A stretch of 32,000 nt of DNA from Candidatus Karelsulcia muelleri PSPU (GTDB lineage: Bacteria > Bacteroidota > Bacteroidia > Flavobacteriales > Blattabacteriaceae). Location: positions 253,353-285,352 of the forward strand of contig NZ_AP013293.1 of NCBI RefSeq assembly GCF_000829155.1, written 5' to 3'. The notes below the pieces were generated by a model. It was given only the letters and a program-made list of their open reading frames with translations. It was not told the origin of the DNA and ran no database searches. Shown here piece by piece: positions 3,099 to 30,274 of this stretch (positions are counted from its first letter, which is position 1; every line of letters begins with the position of its first letter). The position numbers and the translations under genes are program-made.

Positions 3099-3611
3099 AT
3101 GAAAAAAAAAAAAAAAAAAATAAAAACTTTAGAATTAAAAGAAAAATTAGTTATGATTAATAGAGTTTGTAAAGTAACTAAAGGTAGAAGATATTTTAGT
3201 TTTACAGCTTTAGTAATAAAAGGAGATAGAAATGGAGTTGTAGGTTATGGTTTTGGAAAAGCAAAAGAAGCACCAGATGCAATATATAAAGCAGGTGAAA
3301 AAGCAAAAAAAAAATTATTAAAAATAAATATTATTAAAGGAGGTACAATACCTCATGAACAAGAAGCCAAACATGGGGGGGCTCGTGTGTTTATTTGTCC
3401 GGCCTCAGAAGGAACTGGGATAATTGCTGGTGGTGCGGTAAGATCTGTTTTAGAAGCTGTTGGCTTAAAAAATGTATTATCTAAATCAAAAGGATCTTCT
3501 AATAAACATAATTGTATAAAAGCTACAATTTTAGCTTTATCTAAAATAAGAACTGTCAATACTATAGCTCTAGAAAGAGGAATATCTATAAAAAAAATAT
3601 TAAAAGGATAA
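3099..3611 (+). CDS. rpsE: 30S ribosomal protein S5
   Basis: 170 aa. ..INRVCKVTKGRRYFSFTALVIKGDRNGVVGYGFGKAKEAPDAI.KA.. is the canonical S5 dsRBD. Begins with ATG followed by an A19 run (K6). Confidence 0.96.
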   Translation: MKKKKKKIKTLELKEKLVMINRVCKVTKGRRYFSFTALVIKGDRNGVVGYGFGKAKEAPDAIYKAGEKAKKKLLKINIIKGGTIPHEQEAKHGGARVFICPASEGTGIIAGGAVRSVLEAVGLKNVLSKSKGSSNKHNCIKATILALSKIRTVNTIALERGISIKKILKG

Positions 3612-3662: not shown

Positions 3663-4112
3663 ATGATATTAAATAATTTAAATCCTAAATATGGTTCTGT
3701 AAAAAAAAACAAAAGATTAGGTAGAGGTCAAGGATCTGGAAAGGGGGGAACATGTACTAAAGGACATAAAGGAGCAAAAGCTCGTTCAGGAAATTTCAAA
3801 AAAATAGGTTTTGAAGGTGGTCAAATGCCTTTACAAAGAAGAATACCCAAATTTGGATTTAAAAAAAAAAATAAAACAAAATATTTTTTATTAAATTTAG
3901 ATACATTACAATATTTAATAAAGATTGGAACTATTACTAAAATAGTAAATAAAGAAATTTTATTAAAAAAAGGAATTTTAAATAAAAAAAAATTATTAAA
4001 AATTTTAGGTAGAGGAAAATTAAAATCTAAAATAGATATTACTGCTAATAAATTTAGTAAAACAGCATATGATGAAATTAAAAAGATGGGTGGAAAAATA
4101 ATATTATCATAA
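3663..4112 (+). CDS. rplO: 50S ribosomal protein L15
   Basis: 149 aa. ..[26 protein letters not shown].. is the L15 signature. Confidence 0.95.
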
Positions 4113-4114
4113 TT

Positions 4115-5422
4115 ATGAAATTTTTTTTTAGAAGATTAAAAAAAAAAAAAATATATAATACATTATTAATTATATTAATATATCGTTTGGGATCTTTTAT
4201 TACTTTACCTTTTATAAATAAAATTTATAAAAATGATGTTTTATTAAAAACAAATAATAGTTATAAAGTATTCATTAATATGTTAACTTCTTTAACAGGA
4301 GGTGCATGTAATAGAGCATCTATTTTTGCTTTAGGAATAACGCCTTATATATCAGCCTCAATATTTACACAATTAATGTGTTATATTTTTCCTTTTTTTT
4401 ATAAAATTCAACAAGATGGGGAAATAGGTAAAAAAAAATTAAATACTATTACTAGTATAGTAACTATAATAATATCCTTAATACAAGCACCTTTATATAT
4501 TTTAATACTTATTGAAAATAATCTTAAAGACAAGCCAGATTATTTGAATTTTATTTCAATTTATGGAAAAAATTTATTTTTGATTACATCAATAATATGT
4601 CTAACTACAGGAACATTTTTTACAATGTGGTTAGGAAAACAAATTAATAAAAAAGGAATAGGAAATGGAAATTCATTAATAATAATAAGTGGAATATTAT
4701 CTCGTTTTATAAATTCTCTGATATGTGAAATATTAAATCGTCTAAAATATAATTATTTTTCAGGTAGTTTAATATTATTATTTGAATTTTTTATTTGGGG
4801 TTTAATTATTGGTTTTTCTATAATTATAATTAATTTTGTTAAAAAAATATATATACATTATATAAATAATTTTTCTTTTAAAGAAAAAAATATAGAAGAA
4901 CTTTCTTTAAAAGATGATATTCAATATATTCCTTTAAAAGTCGTTTATTCAGGAGTTATGCCTATAATATTTTCACAAGGAATTTTATTTATAATAATAT
5001 TATTATTAAATAATATTAATATTAAAAGTGTTGTAATTGATAAAATTAAAAATATATATGGGTTATGGTATAATTTATTATATAGTATATTAATAATAAT
5101 TATTACGTATTTTTATACATTTTTATCTATTCCTGTTAATAAAATTTCAGATGATTTAAAACTCAATGGAGTTTATATTCCATCTATAAAACCAGGAAAA
5201 GAAACTTATATTTATTTAAAAAAAATTTTATTACAAATATCTTTTTTAGGATCAATATTATTAGCTATAATAGCTATATTACCGTCAATATTTCTATCTC
5301 TAGGAGGAGATAAAAATTTTTCTTTATTTTTTGGGGGAACTTCATTAATAATTCTAGTAGGAGTCTTATTAGAAATAAAAAAAACTGTAAATAGTAATTT
5401 ATTAAATTATAATAAATTTTAA
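4115..5422 (+). CDS. secY: preprotein translocase subunit SecY
   Basis: 435-aa polytopic membrane protein in the canonical slot after rplO. ..IFALGITPYISASIFTQL.. is the SecY TM2 signature. Confidence 0.93.
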   Translation: MKFFFRRLKKKKIYNTLLIILIYRLGSFITLPFINKIYKNDVLLKTNNSYKVFINMLTSLTGGACNRASIFALGITPYISASIFTQLMCYIFPFFYKIQQDGEIGKKKLNTITSIVTIIISLIQAPLYILILIENNLKDKPDYLNFISIYGKNLFLITSIICLTTGTFFTMWLGKQINKKGIGNGNSLIIISGILSRFINSLICEILNRLKYNYFSGSLILLFEFFIWGLIIGFSIIIINFVKKIYIHYINNFSFKEKNIEELSLKDDIQYIPLKVVYSGVMPIIFSQGILFIIILLLNNINIKSVVIDKIKNIYGLWYNLLYSILIIIITYFYTFLSIPVNKISDDLKLNGVYIPSIKPGKETYIYLKKILLQISFLGSILLAIIAILPSIFLSLGGDKNFSLFFGGTSLIILVGVLLEIKKTVNSNLLNYNKF

Positions 5423-5824: not shown

Positions 5825-6204
5825 TGGCTATAATTTCAGGAATAGATATTCCAAATAATAAAAGAGGATTAATAGCTCTTACTTATATATTTGGAATAGG
5901 TCTTAGTACATCTAAAAAAATATTTAAAAATACAGGTATTGATGAAAATTTGAAAGTTTCAAACTGGTCAGATGATAATCTAAATAAAATAAGAAAATAT
6001 ATATCTTCTAATCTAAAAATAGAAGGAGAATTAAAGTTTGAAATACAATTAGATATAAAAAGAATGATTGAAATTGGATGTTATAGAGGAATACGTCATA
6101 GAATAGGATTACCTGTTAGAGGTCAAAAAACTAAAAATAATTGTAGAACAAGGAAAGGTAAAAAAAAAACAGTTGCAAATAAAAAAAAAAAAATTAAATC
6201 ATAA
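5824..6204 (+). CDS. rpsM: 30S ribosomal protein S13
   Basis: 126 aa. [26 protein letters not shown].. is the canonical S13 N-terminus. The C-terminal K-tail is encoded by an A13 run. Confidence 0.96.
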
Positions 6205-6218
6205 TTAATTTAAAAAAA

Positions 6219-6581
6219 ATGGATAAAAAAAAAAATTCAGTTATAGGAGAAGTTCATATAAAATCAACATTTAATAATATTATAATAACATTAACAAATA
6301 AAAAAGGAGATGTTATTGCCTGGTCTTCAGCAGGAAAAATGGGATTTAAAGGTTCTAAAAAAAATACCCCATATGCTGCTCAAGTAGCTGCAGAAGATGT
6401 TGCTGAAAAAGGATTTAATGCTGGAATAAAAAAATTAGAGGTAATAATAAAGGGGCCAGGTGCTGGAAGAGATGCGGCTATTCGTGCATTAGTAAATAAA
6501 AATTTTAATATATTAGTAATAAAAGATATTACCCCTATTCCTCATAATGGGTGTAGACCTCCTAAAAAAAGAAGAATTTAA
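6219..6581 (+). CDS. rpsK: 30S ribosomal protein S11
   Basis: 120 aa. ..[25 protein letters not shown].. and ..[14 protein letters not shown] are S11 signatures. Confidence 0.96.
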
Positions 6582-12315: not shown

Positions 12316-13950
12316 TTAATTTTTAGTAAAATTAAATATAATTTTTTTTCCAAAAGGTGTATAATATGGATTGTTAGAATTAAATAAATTTTTAATTAAA
12401 TATTTAATTTTTAAATTATTAATTTTTACTCCATTTTTAATAGAAAAATATTTACATATTTTTTTATAAAAAATCTCAAGATTTAAATCAAAATTTGATA
12501 TAATACTTTTTATAAAATTAGATATATTATATGACTCTAACATTAGAGGTATATATTTAACTAAAATAATATCTTTAATAAGATTAATTTCAAATCCTAA
12601 ATAATTTAATTTATTTATTATTTCTTTTATAGAAGAATAATTTTTATTAATAATTTTTATTTCGATTGGAAATCGAATTTTTTTTTTTTTTTTATATTTT
12701 TTATAATAAAAAAAATCATATAAAATTCTTTGATGAGCACGATTTTGATTGACTAATATGAGTTCAAATTTAATAAAGCCTAATAGATATTTATTATAAA
12801 TTTGAATCCATTTATATAAATAATATTTATTTACGTTTTCTAAAAAAAAATTAGAATTAAATTTTTTTTCTTTTAAAGATTCTTTTATATTTTTATATTT
12901 TTTATTAAAAAAAAAGATATAATTTTTATCAGTATCTTTTTTTTTTAAAAAAAATTTTTTAATATTATTAATTCCTAAATATTCTTTAATAAGAGTACTA
13001 ATTTTATTACATAAATATATTTCATCATAAAATTTTACTTTTGTTTTGTATGGACTAATATTAATATTAAATTTACTAGGATCCATCGTTAAAAAAATAA
13101 AATAAGAAGGATTATATTTTTTTTTTGTAAGACCTTCATAAGAATTTATAATAGCATTATGTAAATTTTTATTTTTTATAAATCGTTTATTTAAAAAAAT
13201 ATATTGTTTTTTTAAATTAAAATATTTAGTATTTGTTATGTAACCTTGTATTTTAACTAAGTTAGTCGTTTTTTTTATTTTAATTAAATATTTTTTTATT
13301 TTTTTACCAAAAATTTTTATTATACGTTTTTTATGTGAAGATTTTTTTAAAAAAAAAACAATTTTTTTATTATTTTTTAAAATAAAATTTATATCATTAT
13401 GACTTAATACAATTTTATAAAATTCATTAATAATATTTTTTAATTCTAAATTAGAAGATTTTAAAAATTTCCTTTTAACAGGAATATTATAAAATATATT
13501 CTTTATACATATGCTACACCCTTTATCCATGGAAATTGGTAATGGTTTATATTTTAATTTTCCATTTTCTATAATAAGCCTTATTCCTATATCTGATTCT
13601 ATATATCTTGTATCAATTTCTATCTGGGTAACAGAAGTAATATAAGATAAAGCTTCACCTCTAAATCCTTTAGTTGAAAGATTTAAAAGATCTTCTACTT
13701 TATTTATTTTTGACGTAGAATATCTCTCAAAACTTTTTATAGCATCATTTTTACTCATTCCTATACCATCATCTATAATATGTATTCTATCTTTACCTCC
13801 ATTTAATAATATTATTTTTATATTTTTTGCATAAGCATCTATAGAATTTTCTAAAATTTCTTTTAATATTGATGATGGGTTATGTATTACATCTCCAGAT
13901 GCTATTTTATTTGATACATTTTTTGATAATAATTTTATTACATCAGTCAT
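12316..13950 (-). CDS. mutL: DNA mismatch repair protein MutL (endonuclease motifs degenerate)
   Basis: ORF-track entry trimmed to ATG 13950 (MTDVIKLLSKNVSNKIASGDVI..). GHKL ATPase motifs are intact (EILENSIDA, DDGIGM, GFRGEAL). The C-terminal domain is recognisable, but DQHA..E....E reads NQNRAHQRILYD and CPHGRP reads TPFGKK. Confidence 0.88.
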   Translation of the reverse strand: MTDVIKLLSKNVSNKIASGDVIHNPSSILKEILENSIDAYAKNIKIILLNGGKDRIHIIDDGIGMSKNDAIKSFERYSTSKINKVEDLLNLSTKGFRGEALSYITSVTQIEIDTRYIESDIGIRLIIENGKLKYKPLPISMDKGCSICIKNIFYNIPVKRKFLKSSNLELKNIINEFYKIVLSHNDINFILKNNKKIVFFLKKSSHKKRIIKIFGKKIKKYLIKIKKTTNLVKIQGYITNTKYFNLKKQYIFLNKRFIKNKNLHNAIINSYEGLTKKKYNPSYFIFLTMDPSKFNINISPYKTKVKFYDEIYLCNKISTLIKEYLGINNIKKFFLKKKDTDKNYIFFFNKKYKNIKESLKEKKFNSNFFLENVNKYYLYKWIQIYNKYLLGFIKFELILVNQNRAHQRILYDFFYYKKYKKKKKIRFPIEIKIINKNYSSIKEIINKLNYLGFEINLIKDIILVKYIPLMLESYNISNFIKSIISNFDLNLEIFYKKICKYFSIKNGVKINNLKIKYLIKNLFNSNNPYYTPFGKKIIFNFTKN

Positions 13951-21932: not shown

Positions 21933-22352
21933 TTAATTAAAATTTGGAATTTTATTAAAAAATAAAATTCTATTATTTTTTTTATCTATTTTAAATATTA
22001 AATAATTTATATAATTAGTAATTATTAAATAATTACTTTTAAGAAAAAAAAAATATTTAATGATTTGATCAAATACTTTTTGTGAAAAAATACATGAAGA
22101 TTTACATTCAATAAGAATATAAGGTTTTTTTTTATTATAAACTATAATATCTATACGTTTTTTTACCTTATTAAATATAAAATATTTCTCTACAAAAATA
22201 GAAGAGATATCATATCCTTTATTTATAATTAAATGATATAATATATTTTGTCTAATAAATTCTTCTTTAGTAAAAATATAATATTTATTTCTAATAATAC
22301 AATAAATATATGTATTATTATTATAATATTTATAATAAAAATTATATTTCAT
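21933..22352 (-). CDS. small HsdR_N-like / PD-(D/E)xK-fold protein of unknown function
   Basis: 139 aa. The pattern ..TKEEFIRQN.LYHLI..KGY....I.VEK......KKRIDIIVYNKKKPYILIECKSS.......FDQI.KY...L...YLIITN.. matches my memory of the 'type I restriction enzyme R protein N-terminal domain' family, widespread as a stand-alone protein in Bacteroidota. The D..ExK triad appears intact (D68, E82, K84). Confidence 0.7.
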   Translation of the reverse strand: MKYNFYYKYYNNNTYIYCIIRNKYYIFTKEEFIRQNILYHLIINKGYDISSIFVEKYFIFNKVKKRIDIIVYNKKKPYILIECKSSCIFSQKVFDQIIKYFFFLKSNYLIITNYINYLIFKIDKKNNRILFFNKIPNFN

Positions 22353-22360
22353 TTAAAAAA

Positions 22361-23318
22361 ATGTTCTTAACATATAAAAAAAAAATACTTCAAGATTTGA
22401 AGAATAAAAAAATAAAACCTATTTATTTTTTTATGGGAGAAGAAAGATATTTAATAGAAAATTTATCTAATTCAATTGAATTTTTTTTTTAAAAAAAAAA
22501 TTTTTAATAAAAAAATCATATATGGATATGATATAGATCTTAAAAATCTTATTTTTGTTGTAAAACAAATTCCTATACATATAGAAAATTTATACAATTT
22601 GATAATTGTAAAAGAAGCACAATATTTAGCATACAATATTGAAAATTTATATAAATTAATAATTAATAGTAATACTATTTTAATTATTTGTTATAATGAT
22701 AAAATTCTTGATAAGAACACAAAATTATATAATAAAATTAAAAATATTGGAACTATCTATAATAGTGTAAAATTAAAAAAAATAGAAATTTTTTATTTTA
22801 TTCAATATGAAATTGAAAAAATAGGATTTATTATTACTAATAATGCTATTAACCTTATAATAAAATATATAGGTAAAAATTTATATAAAATAAATAATGA
22901 AATAAAAAAAATTTTAATATTATTAAATGATAAAAAAAAAATAGATAAAAAATTTATAAAAAAAAATTTATTAAAAGATAATAATAAATATTCTAAATTA
23001 GAATTATATATAGTAAAAAAAGATTTATTTAAATCTTATAAAACAATTTTTAATTTAAAAAATGTAACAATTAGTATTGTATTAAATAGAATATATATTT
23101 TTTTTATTAAAATAATTAAATTTAATTTATTAAAATTAAATAATTTTAATTTTATTAAAAAAAAAAATATATATTTTAAAGCAATAAAAATTTATCCATT
23201 AAATAAAATAAAAAATATTATTTCATATATAAGAGAATCAGACACTAAAATAAAAAATTCTTCATTAAAAAATGAATATCTTATAAAAGAACTTTTGTCT
23301 AAAATATTTAATAATTAA
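22361..23318 (+). CDS. holA: DNA polymerase III delta subunit, interrupted by a +1 frameshift at 22490 (would be flagged pseudo by pipelines)
   Basis: ATG 22361 opens MFLTYKKKILQDLKNKKIKPIYFFMGEERYLIENLSNSIEFFF*, which looks like the delta N-terminal box. The remainder (..IYGYDIDLKNL....KQIP........LIIVKEAQYL... to 23318) is in the +1 frame (ORF track 22476..23318). The halves join across T10-A10. The sequence is very divergent, so the call rests on motif order, length (~320 aa joined) and the HsdR_N neighbour. Confidence 0.7.
22481..22505. repeat. homopolymer junction T10-A10-T5 at the holA frame break
   Basis: Read directly: gaa tttttttttt aaaaaaaaaa ttttt (T10 22481-22490, A10 22491-22500, T5 22501-22505). 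Confidence 0.95.
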
Positions 23319-23323
23319 TAAAT

Positions 23324-24253
23324 ATGGATAAAATCTATGATTGCATTATTATAGGATCAGGACCTGCTGGATATTCTTCTGCTATTTATATAGCTCGTGC
23401 AGATTTAAATCATATTTTATATACAGGTAATAAACCTGGTGGGCAACTTATAGAAACTAATGAAATAGAAAATTATCCTGGATTTCCTAAAGGAATAAAA
23501 GGTTATATTTTAATGAAAAAATTACAAAAACAAGCTGAAAGATTTGGCTCAAAAATAAAATTTAATTCTGTAAAAGATATAAATTTTTATAAAAAAAAAA
23601 CACATGAAATAATATTAGATAATAATGAAAAATTCAAAACTAAAACTATAATTATAGCAACAGGAGCATCTCCTAAATATCTAGATATAGATAATGAGAA
23701 ATCATTGATAGGACATGGAATATCTACATGTGCAACATGTGATGGATTTTTTTATAAAAAAACCAATGTGGCTATTATTGGAGGGGGGGATAAAGCTCTT
23801 GAAGAAGCTATTTATTTATCAAAAATATGTAATAAAATATATATTATAATTAGAAAAAATAAAATTAAAGCTTCTAAAATATTAGAAAATAAAATTTTAC
23901 AGATTAATAATATTAAATTATTATTTAATAATGAAGTTAAAAAAATAATAGGGTTAAAAACCCTAGAATATTTATTATGTAAAAATAATCTTTCTAATGA
24001 AGAAAAAAAAATAAATGTAAAAGCTATTTTTTTAGCTATAGGTAATAAACCTAATACTAATTTAGTAAAAAAAAAATTATATTTAGATTATAATGGTTAT
24101 ATAATAACAAAAAAAGGATCTACTAAAACCAATATACCTGGAGTATTTGCAGCAGGAGATGTTCAAGATCCAATATATAGGCAAGCTATTACATCAGCTG
24201 GTACAGGATGTATGGCCGCAATAGATGTGGAAAAATATTTAACTTTATTTTGA
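23324..24253 (+). CDS. trxB: thioredoxin-disulfide reductase
   Basis: 309 aa. FAD motif IIIGSGPAG, redox-active CATCDG, NADPH motif GGGDKALEEA and ..GVFAAGDV.D... TGA stop. Confidence 0.94.
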   Translation: MDKIYDCIIIGSGPAGYSSAIYIARADLNHILYTGNKPGGQLIETNEIENYPGFPKGIKGYILMKKLQKQAERFGSKIKFNSVKDINFYKKKTHEIILDNNEKFKTKTIIIATGASPKYLDIDNEKSLIGHGISTCATCDGFFYKKTNVAIIGGGDKALEEAIYLSKICNKIYIIIRKNKIKASKILENKILQINNIKLLFNNEVKKIIGLKTLEYLLCKNNLSNEEKKINVKAIFLAIGNKPNTNLVKKKLYLDYNGYIITKKGSTKTNIPGVFAAGDVQDPIYRQAITSAGTGCMAAIDVEKYLTLF

Positions 24254-24990: not shown

Positions 24991-25967
24991 AATTCTTTTT
25001 TAAATTGTTCTAAAAATCTTAAATCATTTTCAAAAAAAAATCTAATATCATTTAGATGATAAATCATTAATGAAATACGTTCTATTCCCATACCAAAAGC
25101 AAAACCTGAATATAGATCAGGATCTATATTAACATTTTTTAAAACTATAGGATCTACCATCCCACATCCAATGATTTCAAGCCATTTATTATTCCATAAT
25201 ATATCTAATTCTGCACTTGGTTCTGTAAATGGAAAATAAGATGGTCTTAATCTAGTTATAGATTTACCAAAAAAATTTTTAATAAAAAAATTAATAGTAT
25301 TTTTTAAATCTTTAAATGAGACTTTTTTATCTAAATATAATCCTTCGATTTGATGAAACATACAATGAGAATATGAAGAAATATTTTCATTTCTATACAC
25401 CCTACCTGGTGAAATTATTCTTATAGGAGGTTTATTTTTTTCCAGATACCTTATCTGGACTGAAGATGTATGTGTTCTTAATAATTTAGAACTTTTTTTA
25501 ATAAAAAAAGTATCTTGCATTTCTCTAGCAGGATGATTATATGGAAAATTTAATGCTGTAAAATTATACCAATCATCTTCTATTTCTGGGCCTTCACAAA
25601 TTTTAAATCCTATTTTATTAAAAATATTTATAATTCTATTTTTTATTATAGAAATAGGATGTCTAGATCCTAGATATTTTTTATTACCAGGTTTTGTTAA
25701 ATCCTCTATATTATTATTAATATTTTTTTTTTTTAAAAAAAAATTTTTATAATATAAAAAAATATTTTTAATATTTTTTTTAAATGTATTAAGTGATAAT
25801 CCTATATTTTGTTTTTCATAATTATTAATATATTTAAATTCTTTAAAAAAAGAATTTAATATTCCTTTTTTACCTAAATATTTTATTCTAAATATTTCTA
25901 ATTCTGAAGCAGAATTAATATTAATTTTAGATAATTTTTTGTTTAAATTTTTAATCTTTTTTAACAT
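24987..25967 (-). CDS. pheS: phenylalanine--tRNA ligase alpha subunit
   Basis: 326 aa. ..GSRHPI.., ..[21 protein letters not shown].., ..LRTHTS.VQ.R.., and class II motif 3 ..[11 protein letters not shown]... Its ATG overlaps the ilvA stop (TAATG on the minus strand). Confidence 0.93.
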
Positions 25968-28338: not shown

Positions 28339-28584
28339 TTATTTATAATAATAAAAAAAAATTTTATTTATTCCTATAATTTTTTTTATTGGTTTAATAA
28401 TTTTATAAACTTTTTTTGTTTTAATTTCAAATTTTATTATGTAAAAATAATTAGTAAATAATTTTTTTTCTAATAAAGAAATTTTCTTAAAATTAATATT
28501 TCTTCTATTTAAAGTTAGAAGAATTCTTATTAAAGAACCTATTAAATTATCTGAAATAAGAATAATATGTAATTTTTTATTCAT
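28339..28584 (-). CDS. ilvN: acetolactate synthase small (regulatory) subunit, reduced to a bare ACT domain (81 aa)
   Basis: ..HIILISDNLIGSLIRILLTLNRRNINFKKISL.. follows the ACT-domain pattern of IlvN/IlvH (V.N..G.L.R..GLF.RR..NI.S). It lies between ilvB and ilvC, and its ATG overlaps the ilvB 3' end by 8 nt. Confidence 0.7.
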   Translation of the reverse strand: MNKKLHIILISDNLIGSLIRILLTLNRRNINFKKISLLEKKLFTNYFYIIKFEIKTKKVYKIIKPIKKIIGINKIFFYYYK

Positions 28585-30274
28585 TAATTGATTTTAATCT
28601 AATCTTCTCTATAGAATTTCCAGGAGTAATCATCGGAAAAACCTTATATTCTTTTTCTATCATTATTTCAAGTATATATGTATTTTTGGTATTTAACAGA
28701 TCTTTAATATCTTGTTTTAAATATTTTCTATTAAGTATTTTTTTATACTTTATTCCATAAGAATAAAACATTTTAATAAAATCTGGATTTATAATTTTCG
28801 TAGAAGAATATCTTCTTTCAAAAAAAAATTCTTGCCATTGTCTCACCATTCCTAAATAATTATTATTTAATAATATAATTTTTATAGTAATATTATGCTG
28901 CATAATAGTTCCCAATTCTTGTAGAGTCATTTGAATTCCTCCATCTCCCACTATACATATTATTTGACAATTTTTTCCCCAAATTTTAGCTCCTATAGAG
29001 GCTGGTAAAGCAAATCCCATTGTTCCCAATCCACCAGAAGTAATTTGACTTTTTTTACAAGTAAAATTAAAATATCTAGAAGCAGACATTTGATGTTGTC
29101 CTACATCTGTTACTAAAACACTTTTTTTTTTTTTAAATAAATTAATATAATTAATAACTTCACCCATAGTGATACCTATATTATTAGTATAATAATCATT
29201 TTTTATTACTTTTTTTTCTTCTTTTTTTTTTAAAAAAAAAAAAAATTTTTTCCATTTTTTATTTTTTTTTATCTCTATTTTAGATAATAATAATTTTAAA
29301 ATTTTTTTACAATTTCCTAATAAAAATATATTTGTATTCATATTTTTATGAATTTCAGATTCATCTATATCTATATGAATAATATTAGATTTTTTAGCAT
29401 ATTTAGTTAGATCTCCTGTAACTCTATCATCAAAACGCATTCCTATTGCTATTATTACATCAGATTTATTAGTTAATATATTAGGTGCGTAATGCCCATG
29501 CATTCCTAACATGCCCATATTTAAAATATTTTCTGTTTTTAACGCACCTAATCCTAAAAGTGTACTAGCTGCAGGAATATTAGTTTTTTCTATAAATTCT
29601 TTTAATTCTTTTTCTGCATTAGCTAAAATAATTCCTTGCCCAATAATAATAAAAGGTTTACTAGAATTATTAATAATAGTAGCTGCTTTTTCTATTTTTT
29701 TTATATTTATTTTTTTTTTTTTTAAAAAAATATTCAAATATTTTTTATATTTGAAATTTGATAATTCTAATTGTGCATCCTTTGTAATATCTATTAAAAC
29801 TGGACCGGGTCTTCCAGATTGAGCTATAAAAAAACCTTTTGATAAAATATATGATATATCTTTAGCTTTTGTTACTTGATAATTCCATTTTGTAACAGGT
29901 ATTGAAATATCTATTATATCCGTTTCTTGAAAGGCATCAGTACCTAATAAATTAGATGAAACTTGTCCAGTAATGCATAGTATAGCTGTACTATCTATTA
30001 AAGAATCTGCTAAGCCAGTAATTAAATTTGTAGCTCCAGGACCTGAAGTAGTAAAACATACGCCTACTTTTCCACTAACTCTAGCATAACCTTGAGCGGC
30101 ATGTATAGCACCTTGTTCATGACGTGTTAAAATATGTGATATCTGTTTTATATAATAATATAATGCATCATATATCGGCATAATAGCTCCTCCAGGATAT
30201 CCAAATATATATTTAGTTTTTTCAAGAATAAGTGTTTTTATAATAATTTCTGATCCTTTAATATATTTATTCAT
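28577..30274 (-). CDS. ilvB: acetolactate synthase large (catalytic) subunit
   Basis: 565 aa. ..GYPGGAIMPIYDAL.., ..RHEQGA.HAA.GYARVSGK.GVC..TSGPGATNL.TG.. and the ThDP motif ..GDGGIQMTLQELGT...NN..LGMVRQWQ... Confidence 0.94.
   Translation of the reverse strand: MNKYIKGSEIIIKTLILEKTKYIFGYPGGAIMPIYDALYYYIKQISHILTRHEQGAIHAAQGYARVSGKVGVCFTTSGPGATNLITGLADSLIDSTAILCITGQVSSNLLGTDAFQETDIIDISIPVTKWNYQVTKAKDISYILSKGFFIAQSGRPGPVLIDITKDAQLELSNFKYKKYLNIFLKKKKINIKKIEKAATIINNSSKPFIIIGQGIILANAEKELKEFIEKTNIPAASTLLGLGALKTENILNMGMLGMHGHYAPNILTNKSDVIIAIGMRFDDRVTGDLTKYAKKSNIIHIDIDESEIHKNMNTNIFLLGNCKKILKLLLSKIEIKKNKKWKKFFFFLKKKEEKKVIKNDYYTNNIGITMGEVINYINLFKKKKSVLVTDVGQHQMSASRYFNFTCKKSQITSGGLGTMGFALPASIGAKIWGKNCQIICIVGDGGIQMTLQELGTIMQHNITIKIILLNNNYLGMVRQWQEFFFERRYSSTKIINPDFIKMFYSYGIKYKKILNRKYLKQDIKDLLNTKNTYILEIMIEKEYKVFPMITPGNSIEKIRLKSINE

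Follow-up and report, generated by a model that had tools for sequence, protein, structure and literature searches.

Wernegreen et al. 2010 reportedly described ‘ancient frameshifts maintained by selection’ in Blochmannia. Slippage of RNA polymerase on A/T runs of at least 9 nucleotides (nt) is established. Reported slippage-rescued cases are cell-wall genes of Buchnera aphidicola and hisH of Blochmannia (Tamas et al. 2008), and the genome paper of Blochmannia vafer (PMC3017870) reportedly also takes up the subject. According to the summary of Tamas et al. 2008 in PMC5009743, the frame is restored in 12–50% of the transcripts of such genes at their long poly(A) runs. The clamp-loader subunit gene dnaX is expressed through a −1 ribosomal frameshift at A AAA AAG in Escherichia coli and through transcriptional slippage on A9 in Thermus thermophilus (PMC5009743). 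Here we analyse a stretch of 32,000 nt (the window, to whose positions all coordinates refer) from Candidatus Karelsulcia (Sulcia) muelleri PSPU, in which holA, the gene for the delta subunit of DNA polymerase III, is split into two overlapping open reading frames (ORFs) at a T10–A10 junction. PSPU is the Sulcia symbiont of the spittlebug Philaenus spumarius. We suggest, with a probability of about one half, that this is an old holA frameshift in spittlebug Sulcia and that non-programmed slippage, chiefly of RNA polymerase, rescues the gene at the U/A run.

The ORF that begins at ATG 22361 encodes MFLTYKKKILQDLKNKKIKPIYFFMGEERYLIENLSNSIEFFF* and terminates at TAA 22490–22492, within GAA TTT TTT TTT TAA AAA AAA ATT; the protein continues in the +1 frame to 23318, with true delta coding from about 22491. 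The C-terminal fragment (280 amino acids (aa)) is identical to BAO66425.1, annotated in GenBank as ‘DNA polymerase III subunit delta’. Deletion of one T yields a 318-aa fused protein that contains ..SIEFFFKKKIFNKK... An earlier note, made from the letters of the window, had given the start, the stop, the T10/A10 junction and the +1 continuation at exactly these positions, and had proposed that loss of one U from the run restores a full-length delta of ‘~320 aa’, in good agreement with the product obtained here. Its statement that every other gene of the window has an intact frame was borne out by a continuous ORF map and, for ten ORFs, by comparison with NCBIfam. A homologue search at the protein level returned one protein from the 285,352-bp PSPU contig and no second holA.

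The unusual feature of holA is the frame break and not the tract, because such tracts are common in the window (21.6% GC). In total, 37 A/T runs of at least 10 nt, the longest of them A19, are in frame within 36 other ORFs, and a second T–A double run, T10A14, lies in frame inside ilvB (29222–29245). An exact T10A10 was obtained in 0 of 100 dinucleotide shuffles.

Profile, fold and gene order bear out the identification as holA that the earlier note had made. The fused protein matches NCBIfam TIGR01128 (holA) with 92.7 bits over model positions 1–316 (cutoff, 80), whereas the C-terminal fragment alone scores 79.3 bits over positions 31–316, just below the cutoff. As the fused protein fills the model and the fragment starts at position 31, the frame break is real relative to the HolA family. 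PF06144 was not detected on the divergent sequence of the fused protein at E ≤ 1; this domain is precomputed on most full-length Sulcia orthologues. The AlphaFold2 model of the fused protein (22 homologues) has a mean predicted local distance difference test score of 82, with values of 91–93 for the first 40 residues. Its top Foldseek match in the Protein Data Bank is the Bacillus subtilis delta 3zh9 (E = 9.7e-13, template-modelling score of 0.63), and the E. coli delta structures 1jqj_C and 1jr3_D were also matched; the fused protein is thus predicted to fold as a three-domain clamp-loader (AAA+-like) delta. The N-terminal fragment holds the KPIYFxMGEE motif and the invariant residues K19, Y22, F23, M25, G26, E27, E28, I32, L35 and E40. 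In the model, the junction coincides with the end of the helix of residues 29–43 and the loop 44–46, ahead of the strand 47–54, in a surface region that is variable in length among orthologues. The order gapA, HSDR_N gene, holA, trxB, trmH and pheS is the same around the intact holA of other Sulcia.

Homologues of the gene fall into four close clusters, all truncated (280 or 241 aa), and more than 20 further Sulcia proteins that are intact (307–323 aa, 53–58% identical) and have FF(F/L)KKK at the tract. The truncated loci were fetched from a second PSPU assembly (GCA_002855775.2), OZ183483.1, OZ032149.1, a Logan assembly of SRR21069227 and CARI, the Sulcia of Clastoptera arizonana, and the tract was measured in alignments between the invariant GAA and AAT codons. 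GCA_002855775.2 is identical to the window over 6.2 kilobases (kb) at holA, including the tract. All five spittlebug-type Sulcia genomes that we found are out of frame at this position, with no tract length a multiple of three (25 or 26 nt; Table 1). Alignment of related symbiont strains, which the earlier note had suggested, therefore shows both the break and the tract to be conserved in five out of five; the T10A10 palindrome of PSPU is not conserved in the spittlebug-type relatives. By contrast, the nearest intact outgroup (L005) reads GAA TTT TTT TTT AAA GAA AAA AAA (EFFFKEKK), with its T9 in frame, and cicada Sulcia have ELFLKKKEK. Because these outgroups are in frame, the tract represents an AT-biased version of the codons for Phe-Phe-(Phe/Leu)-Lys-Lys-Lys, and the spittlebug clade has acquired the break as a derived state. 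Searching proteins with the N-terminal fragment of 43 aa gave one cluster of four members, all from genomes already compared, and scans of a genome contig collection with an exact 46-mer and with the C-terminal protein gave no match, the collection evidently being without this clade. Within each sub-clade the boundaries between runs shift while the total stays fixed at 25 or 26 nt, which amounts to about 7 apparent substitutions in 25 nt between genomes that otherwise differ by ~2–5%; these shifts look like dislocation mutagenesis (transient misalignment) or compensated indels.

The correction that would restore the frame is not the same in all lineages. In PSPU and OZ183483 the frame can be regained solely through the length of the U run, with U9 giving ..EFFFKKK.. 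and U12 giving ..EFFFFKKK..; loss of an A is useless in PSPU because the UAA stays. The other three genomes, those with 26-nt tracts, need the opposite correction, that is, one additional nucleotide (or a −1 ribosomal shift), and in CARI the added nucleotide must be a U. As these 26-nt lineages have no canonical start in the C frame for 31 codons, a product with an intact domain I needs recoding. The common feature of the five genomes is a long U/A homopolymer. Opposite corrections of the 25- and 26-nt phases fit unspecific slippage better than one dedicated ribosomal site, and slippage, which yields insertions as well as deletions, accommodates both phases.

We propose that the frameshift arose by a length change in a Phe-Phe-Phe-Lys-Lys-Lys tract, ancestrally GAA TTT TTT TTT AAA, and that a fraction of expression events would slip on U10/A10 to give a delta of ~318 aa, so that the gene may still be used. 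RNA polymerase is the most likely slipping enzyme, as an rU:dA or rA:dT hybrid could realign on runs of at least 9 nt. Transcripts would then be mixed, those with U9 or U12 being in frame in PSPU and those with U11 in CARI, and the expected junction peptides of slipped products would be ..NSIEFFFKKKIF.., ..FFFFKKK.. and ..FFLKKK... The junction region varies in length among orthologues, and products that gain or lose one residue there (FFLKKK, FFFKKK or FFFFKKK) should be tolerated. Ribosomal slippage could contribute, as +1 at UUU-UAA in PSPU or, where the tract has 26 nt, as −1 on either the U or the A run; so could tract-length heterogeneity among genome copies. The A-runs could act as A AAA AAA heptamers. 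The indel rate of transcription in Buchnera rises exponentially with run length (PMC5574713), and in Sulcia indels are more frequent the longer the homopolymer (PMC7952229). The slippage, its level and a working product are what we infer from these genomes.

The locus resembles the Buchnera and Blochmannia cases in several respects: the host is an obligate symbiont with an AT-rich, reduced genome; the break lies in an A/T homopolymer of at least 10 nt that derives from Lys/Phe codons under AT bias; and the break is common to related lineages, with the flanking ORF staying open. Transcriptional slippage in those symbionts, cited as a precedent when the break was noticed, fits this locus. The cases differ in the clade of the symbiont (Bacteroidota) and in the gene, in that a U-run abuts an A-run in holA, and in that the sign of the correction differs between sister lineages. 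The likeness to dnaX would be that of a clamp-loader subunit gene expressed via slippage on an A-rich run, by RNA polymerase in the case of Thermus. However, dnaX has an intact ORF, and its recoding adds gamma, a shorter protein that is also functional, whereas in holA recoding would make the only functional product, and no stimulatory hairpin was found.

Both halves of the gene have been kept up since the break. On a four-taxon tree of the PSPU window and three spittlebug-type relatives, holA accumulated ~60–64 substitutions, ~41 of them on terminal branches, and no stop codon appeared in either half. Given a probability of creating a stop of 0.07 (uniform model) or 0.126 (observed spectrum) per random substitution, neutrality predicts 4–8 stops in ~60 substitutions; the probability of none is 0.0002–0.01 for all substitutions and, by arithmetic from the same model, ~0.004–0.05 for the terminal branches only. 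A four-way alignment of 6.7 kb contains five indels apart from unequal locus ends, and those in holA are the tract and one in-frame 6-nt indel; none of the eight other holA A/T runs of at least 8 nt carries a frameshifting indel. Nor did we find further disabling mutations (stops, frameshifts, or loss of the start or of conserved residues) in any of the five lineages. The N-terminal fragment keeps its ATG and every family-invariant residue, with only 0–2 nucleotide differences between pairs of spittlebug lineages in the first 120 nt of its ORF. The consensus residue is retained in 88% of highly conserved columns, and variable sites favour less conserved columns (p = 0.011 against the Sulcia profile), although the conservation-weighted placement signal is weak overall (p = 0.011, 0.08 and 0.13; Fisher test not significant). 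The rate of nonsynonymous substitution (dN) of holA is ~2 times that of pheS and trxB among the frameshifted genomes and ~3 times among cicada Sulcia, in which holA is intact, and there was thus no acceleration after the break. The substitution spectrum of holA consists mostly of transversions (two-state sites: 15 A/C, 15 A/T, 14 G/T, 4 A/G and 2 C/T).

Several observations weigh against slippage rescue. Homopolymer insertions dominate in Buchnera transcriptomes, in which no frame-restoring event was found genome-wide (PMC5574713), while PSPU needs a deletion or a +2 insertion. None of the five lineages has reverted to an in-frame length although the tract is evidently mutable, which would be surprising were full expression important. 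The enrichment of variable sites in less conserved columns is modest; it loses significance when measured against a Flavobacterium profile (p = 0.13) or in the top-conserved columns (p = 0.21). The Nei–Gojobori ratio of dN to synonymous substitution (dS) of holA is ~1.0–1.6 in the frameshifted clade, a value that is uninformative because the ratio is equally high where holA is intact (1.5–3.1 in cicada Sulcia, on tiny synonymous counts of 1–8). Finally, holA is dispensable in some contexts, being lost or pseudogenised in other Sulcia lineages. As a test for pseudogenes, dN/dS was rejected: the intact controls are equally high, synonymous counts are too small and the estimate is biased at 20% GC.

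The strongest alternative is that the tract indel inactivated holA in spittlebug Sulcia and that the resulting pseudogene looks intact owing to extremely slow evolution; we regard this as possible but rather unlikely, and the accompanying idea that replication manages without delta, as in leafhopper Sulcia, as equally tentative. Leafhopper Sulcia (ALF/MSEV) are without holA, holB, dnaN and dnaX (PMC5533117, PMC7952229), and holA is pseudogenised in two out of three Pyrops Sulcia (PMC10333215). The claim of the earlier note that holA is normally indispensable is accordingly weak in this genus, and a dead gene, which the note had listed as an alternative, has a real prior because the gene was lost or pseudogenised elsewhere in Sulcia. 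A dN/dS of about 1, a tract that drifts while remaining out of frame in all five lineages, and a low divergence (dS ~0.02–0.06), at which few disabling hits are expected per lineage, are all compatible with a pseudogene. Against this stand the lack of any stop in ~60 substitutions, the undisturbed A/T runs elsewhere in the gene, the intact start codon and N-terminal motif, and a rate relative to neighbouring genes no higher than in lineages with an intact holA; in addition, CARI has, according to the literature, kept dnaN, dnaX and holB, genes that would serve no purpose if delta were missing. The leafhopper and Pyrops symbionts belong to the same genus and show, for the same gene, that delta can become dispensable during genome reduction. 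In those lineages, however, holA is gone or visibly degraded, and leafhopper Sulcia also lost its partner genes, whereas spittlebug holA has a single conserved lesion and is otherwise intact. If it is a pseudogene, the break would be the first step of a loss of the clamp loader that is completed in leafhopper Sulcia.

Slippage by RNA polymerase also has to be set against a dedicated, programmed +1 ribosomal frameshift, in which tRNA-Phe would slip from UUU 22487–89 to 22488–90 with a slowly decoded UAA in the A site and the mRNA unedited. We consider this improbable. UUU UAA A is a plausible +1 site in PSPU, as re-pairing is perfect (UUU is also present in the +1 frame) and a stop occupies the A site; T10 with UAA is also found in OZ183483 and CARI, and release factors may be scarce in a reduced symbiont. 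The slippery stop that the earlier note pointed out is therefore present in PSPU, but it is not a conserved feature: it occurs in three out of five genomes, OZ032149 and SRR21069227 being without a stop at the junction, and CARI has the UAA yet needs a −1 (or +2) shift. With two of the five genomes lacking the stop and three needing the opposite correction, a conserved prfB-like +1 site is not the common solution. No Shine–Dalgarno (SD)-like stimulator is visible upstream of the shift site, where the sequence AAUUCAAUUGAA is without a purine-rich element; RNA folds predicted at the tract and 3′ of it do not surpass those of shuffled sequence (z about −0.7), with no dnaX-type stem-loop; and homopolymers of at least 10 nt are classical substrates for slippage by RNA polymerase. 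The comparison with prfB (RF2, CUU UGA C) thus extends to a P-site codon that re-pairs perfectly in +1 and to the in-frame stop that follows it in the A site. It ends there, as prfB has an SD stimulator and an autoregulatory logic, both missing from the holA site, which is unconserved among relatives that share the break.

A related possibility is that the out-of-frame state is itself maintained, recoding having been obligatory since before the split of the Clastoptera-type (CARI) and Philaenus-type (PSPU) lineages and keeping delta low. This seems to us a doubtful proposition, and it is just as doubtful that the tract, as this would entail, switched between needing −1 nt and +1 nt without passing through, or staying in, the in-frame state. 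It is suggested by the opposite phases of sister lineages and by a total tract length that is constant in each of them although the run boundaries move.

It is very unlikely that the 280-aa C-terminal fragment is the functional product, translated alone from TTG 22476 with or without the 43-aa N-terminal peptide as a non-covalent partner. In PSPU and OZ183483 the TTG shares the C frame, the 280-aa product is the one annotated in GenBank, and the split lies between secondary-structure elements. However, conserved S-I-E codons of the N frame account for the TTG, and in the three 26-nt lineages it does not fall in the C frame; there, the first canonical start (also TTG) lies 31 codons downstream and would remove ~79 residues, including core strands and invariant residues; the fragment is also without beta1 and the KPIYFxMGEE motif. 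Independent initiation of the C-terminal fragment was rejected for the 26-nt lineages, as no canonical start is present near the junction.

A homopolymer sequencing or assembly error, with a true tract of T9A10 in frame, was raised in the earlier note and is the least credible explanation. Several platforms do make errors at runs of at least 10 nt, and no other site in the window is disrupted, but the break is conserved in all five spittlebug-type genomes (six assemblies from different technologies), which effectively excludes an error. PSPU was assembled twice with an identical sequence, OZ183483 and OZ032149 are separate NCBI chromosome assemblies, the Logan assembly of SRR21069227 derives from Illumina reads of a public run, 454 homopolymer errors in CARI were corrected with Illumina reads (PMC2953269), and the 37 equal or longer A/T runs of the window are in frame.

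Rescue of holA by slippage would be a phenomenon of a known kind, met here in another clade of symbionts and another gene. Full-text literature searches, whose coverage did not extend to the PSPU genome paper (Koga & Moran 2014), gave no report of a frameshift or slippage in Sulcia holA. If the gene is expressed, slippage rescue, a feature of Gammaproteobacteria (Buchnera and Blochmannia), would reach a symbiont among the Bacteroidota and a gene of core replication, and sister lineages that need corrections of opposite sign would argue for unspecific polymerase slippage instead of a dedicated signal. Public annotations of the locus are inconsistent, ranging from a 280-aa ‘delta subunit’ (PSPU) and a 241-aa ‘conserved hypothetical protein’ (CARI) to hypothetical proteins of 43 or 58 aa, and comparisons of replication gene content in Sulcia treat holA inconsistently as a result; it has been counted as retained in CARI (PMC7952229).

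Table 1 Features of the holA locus in the window and composition of the tract in spittlebug-type Sulcia
Feature	Position	Strand	Composition, content or evidence	Length
Whole holA (DNA polymerase III delta) locus	22361–23318	+	Two overlapping ORFs, frames 0 and +1; profile, fold, synteny	
N-terminal ORF	22361–22492	+	Helix 1, core strand beta1 (IYFFMG), helix 29–43	43 codons + UAA
+1-frame ORF	22476–23318	+	From TTG 22476; stop 23316–23318	280 codons
T10 run (U10 in mRNA)	22481–22490	+	Sole run in which a 1-nt deletion restores the PSPU frame	
UUU UAA	22487–22492	+	Last Phe codon and 0-frame stop; possible +1 ribosomal slip site; PSPU, OZ183483 and CARI only	
A10 run and T5	22491–22505	+	A10 (22491–22500) and T5 (22501–22505); with T10, the variable tract between GAA and AAT	25 nt (with T10)
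Tract, PSPU			T10 A10 T5	25 nt
Tract, OZ183483			T10 A13 T2	25 nt
Tract, OZ032149			T9 C A12 T4	26 nt
Tract, SRR21069227			T11 A13 T2	26 nt
Tract, CARI			T10 A12 T4	26 nt

Very long runs also occur in frame in essential genes of the window, at 3102–3120 (A19, at the start of rpsE), 2255–2271 (A17), 12678–12693 (T16, mutL, − strand), 4138–4151 (A14) and 29222–29245 (T10A14, ilvB). If the polymerase slips on the U10/A10 of holA, essential genes with such long runs must give a sizeable fraction of out-of-frame transcripts.

Directly next to holA, in divergent orientation, a gene at 21933–22352 (− strand) encodes a protein of 139 aa in which the HSDR_N_2 domain is complete (PD-(D/E)XK-like, from the N terminus of type I restriction R proteins; E = 3e-29). 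It is present in this position in every Sulcia locus fetched, with a dN/dS of ~0.6–1.4 (Nei–Gojobori, based on very few substitutions). On the other side, trxB (thioredoxin reductase, 23324–24253) lies directly downstream of holA in PSPU, OZ183483, OZ032149, SRR21069227 and two cicada Sulcia and is absent from this position in the CARI (3726–3775), L005 (3861–3870) and L007 (3972–4039) loci, which points to repeated lineage-specific loss. The longest trmH-like (SpoU) ORF overlaps trxB by 46 nt (24208–24253); as relatives are annotated with a start equivalent to ~24250, the real start is probably downstream of that of the longest ORF. In GCA_002855775.2, pheS contains an extra 225 nt that repeat adjacent sequence (window 25576–25660 compared with 6101–6550 of its locus) and encodes 401 aa, compared with 326 aa in the window and every other relative; a misassembly or duplication in that assembly is the probable cause. 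Further downstream, 8 nt at the end of ilvB (acetolactate synthase large subunit) are shared with an 81-aa ORF (28339–28584, − strand), which matches nothing in NCBIfam at 1e-5 and may be a shrunken ilvN/ilvH small subunit.

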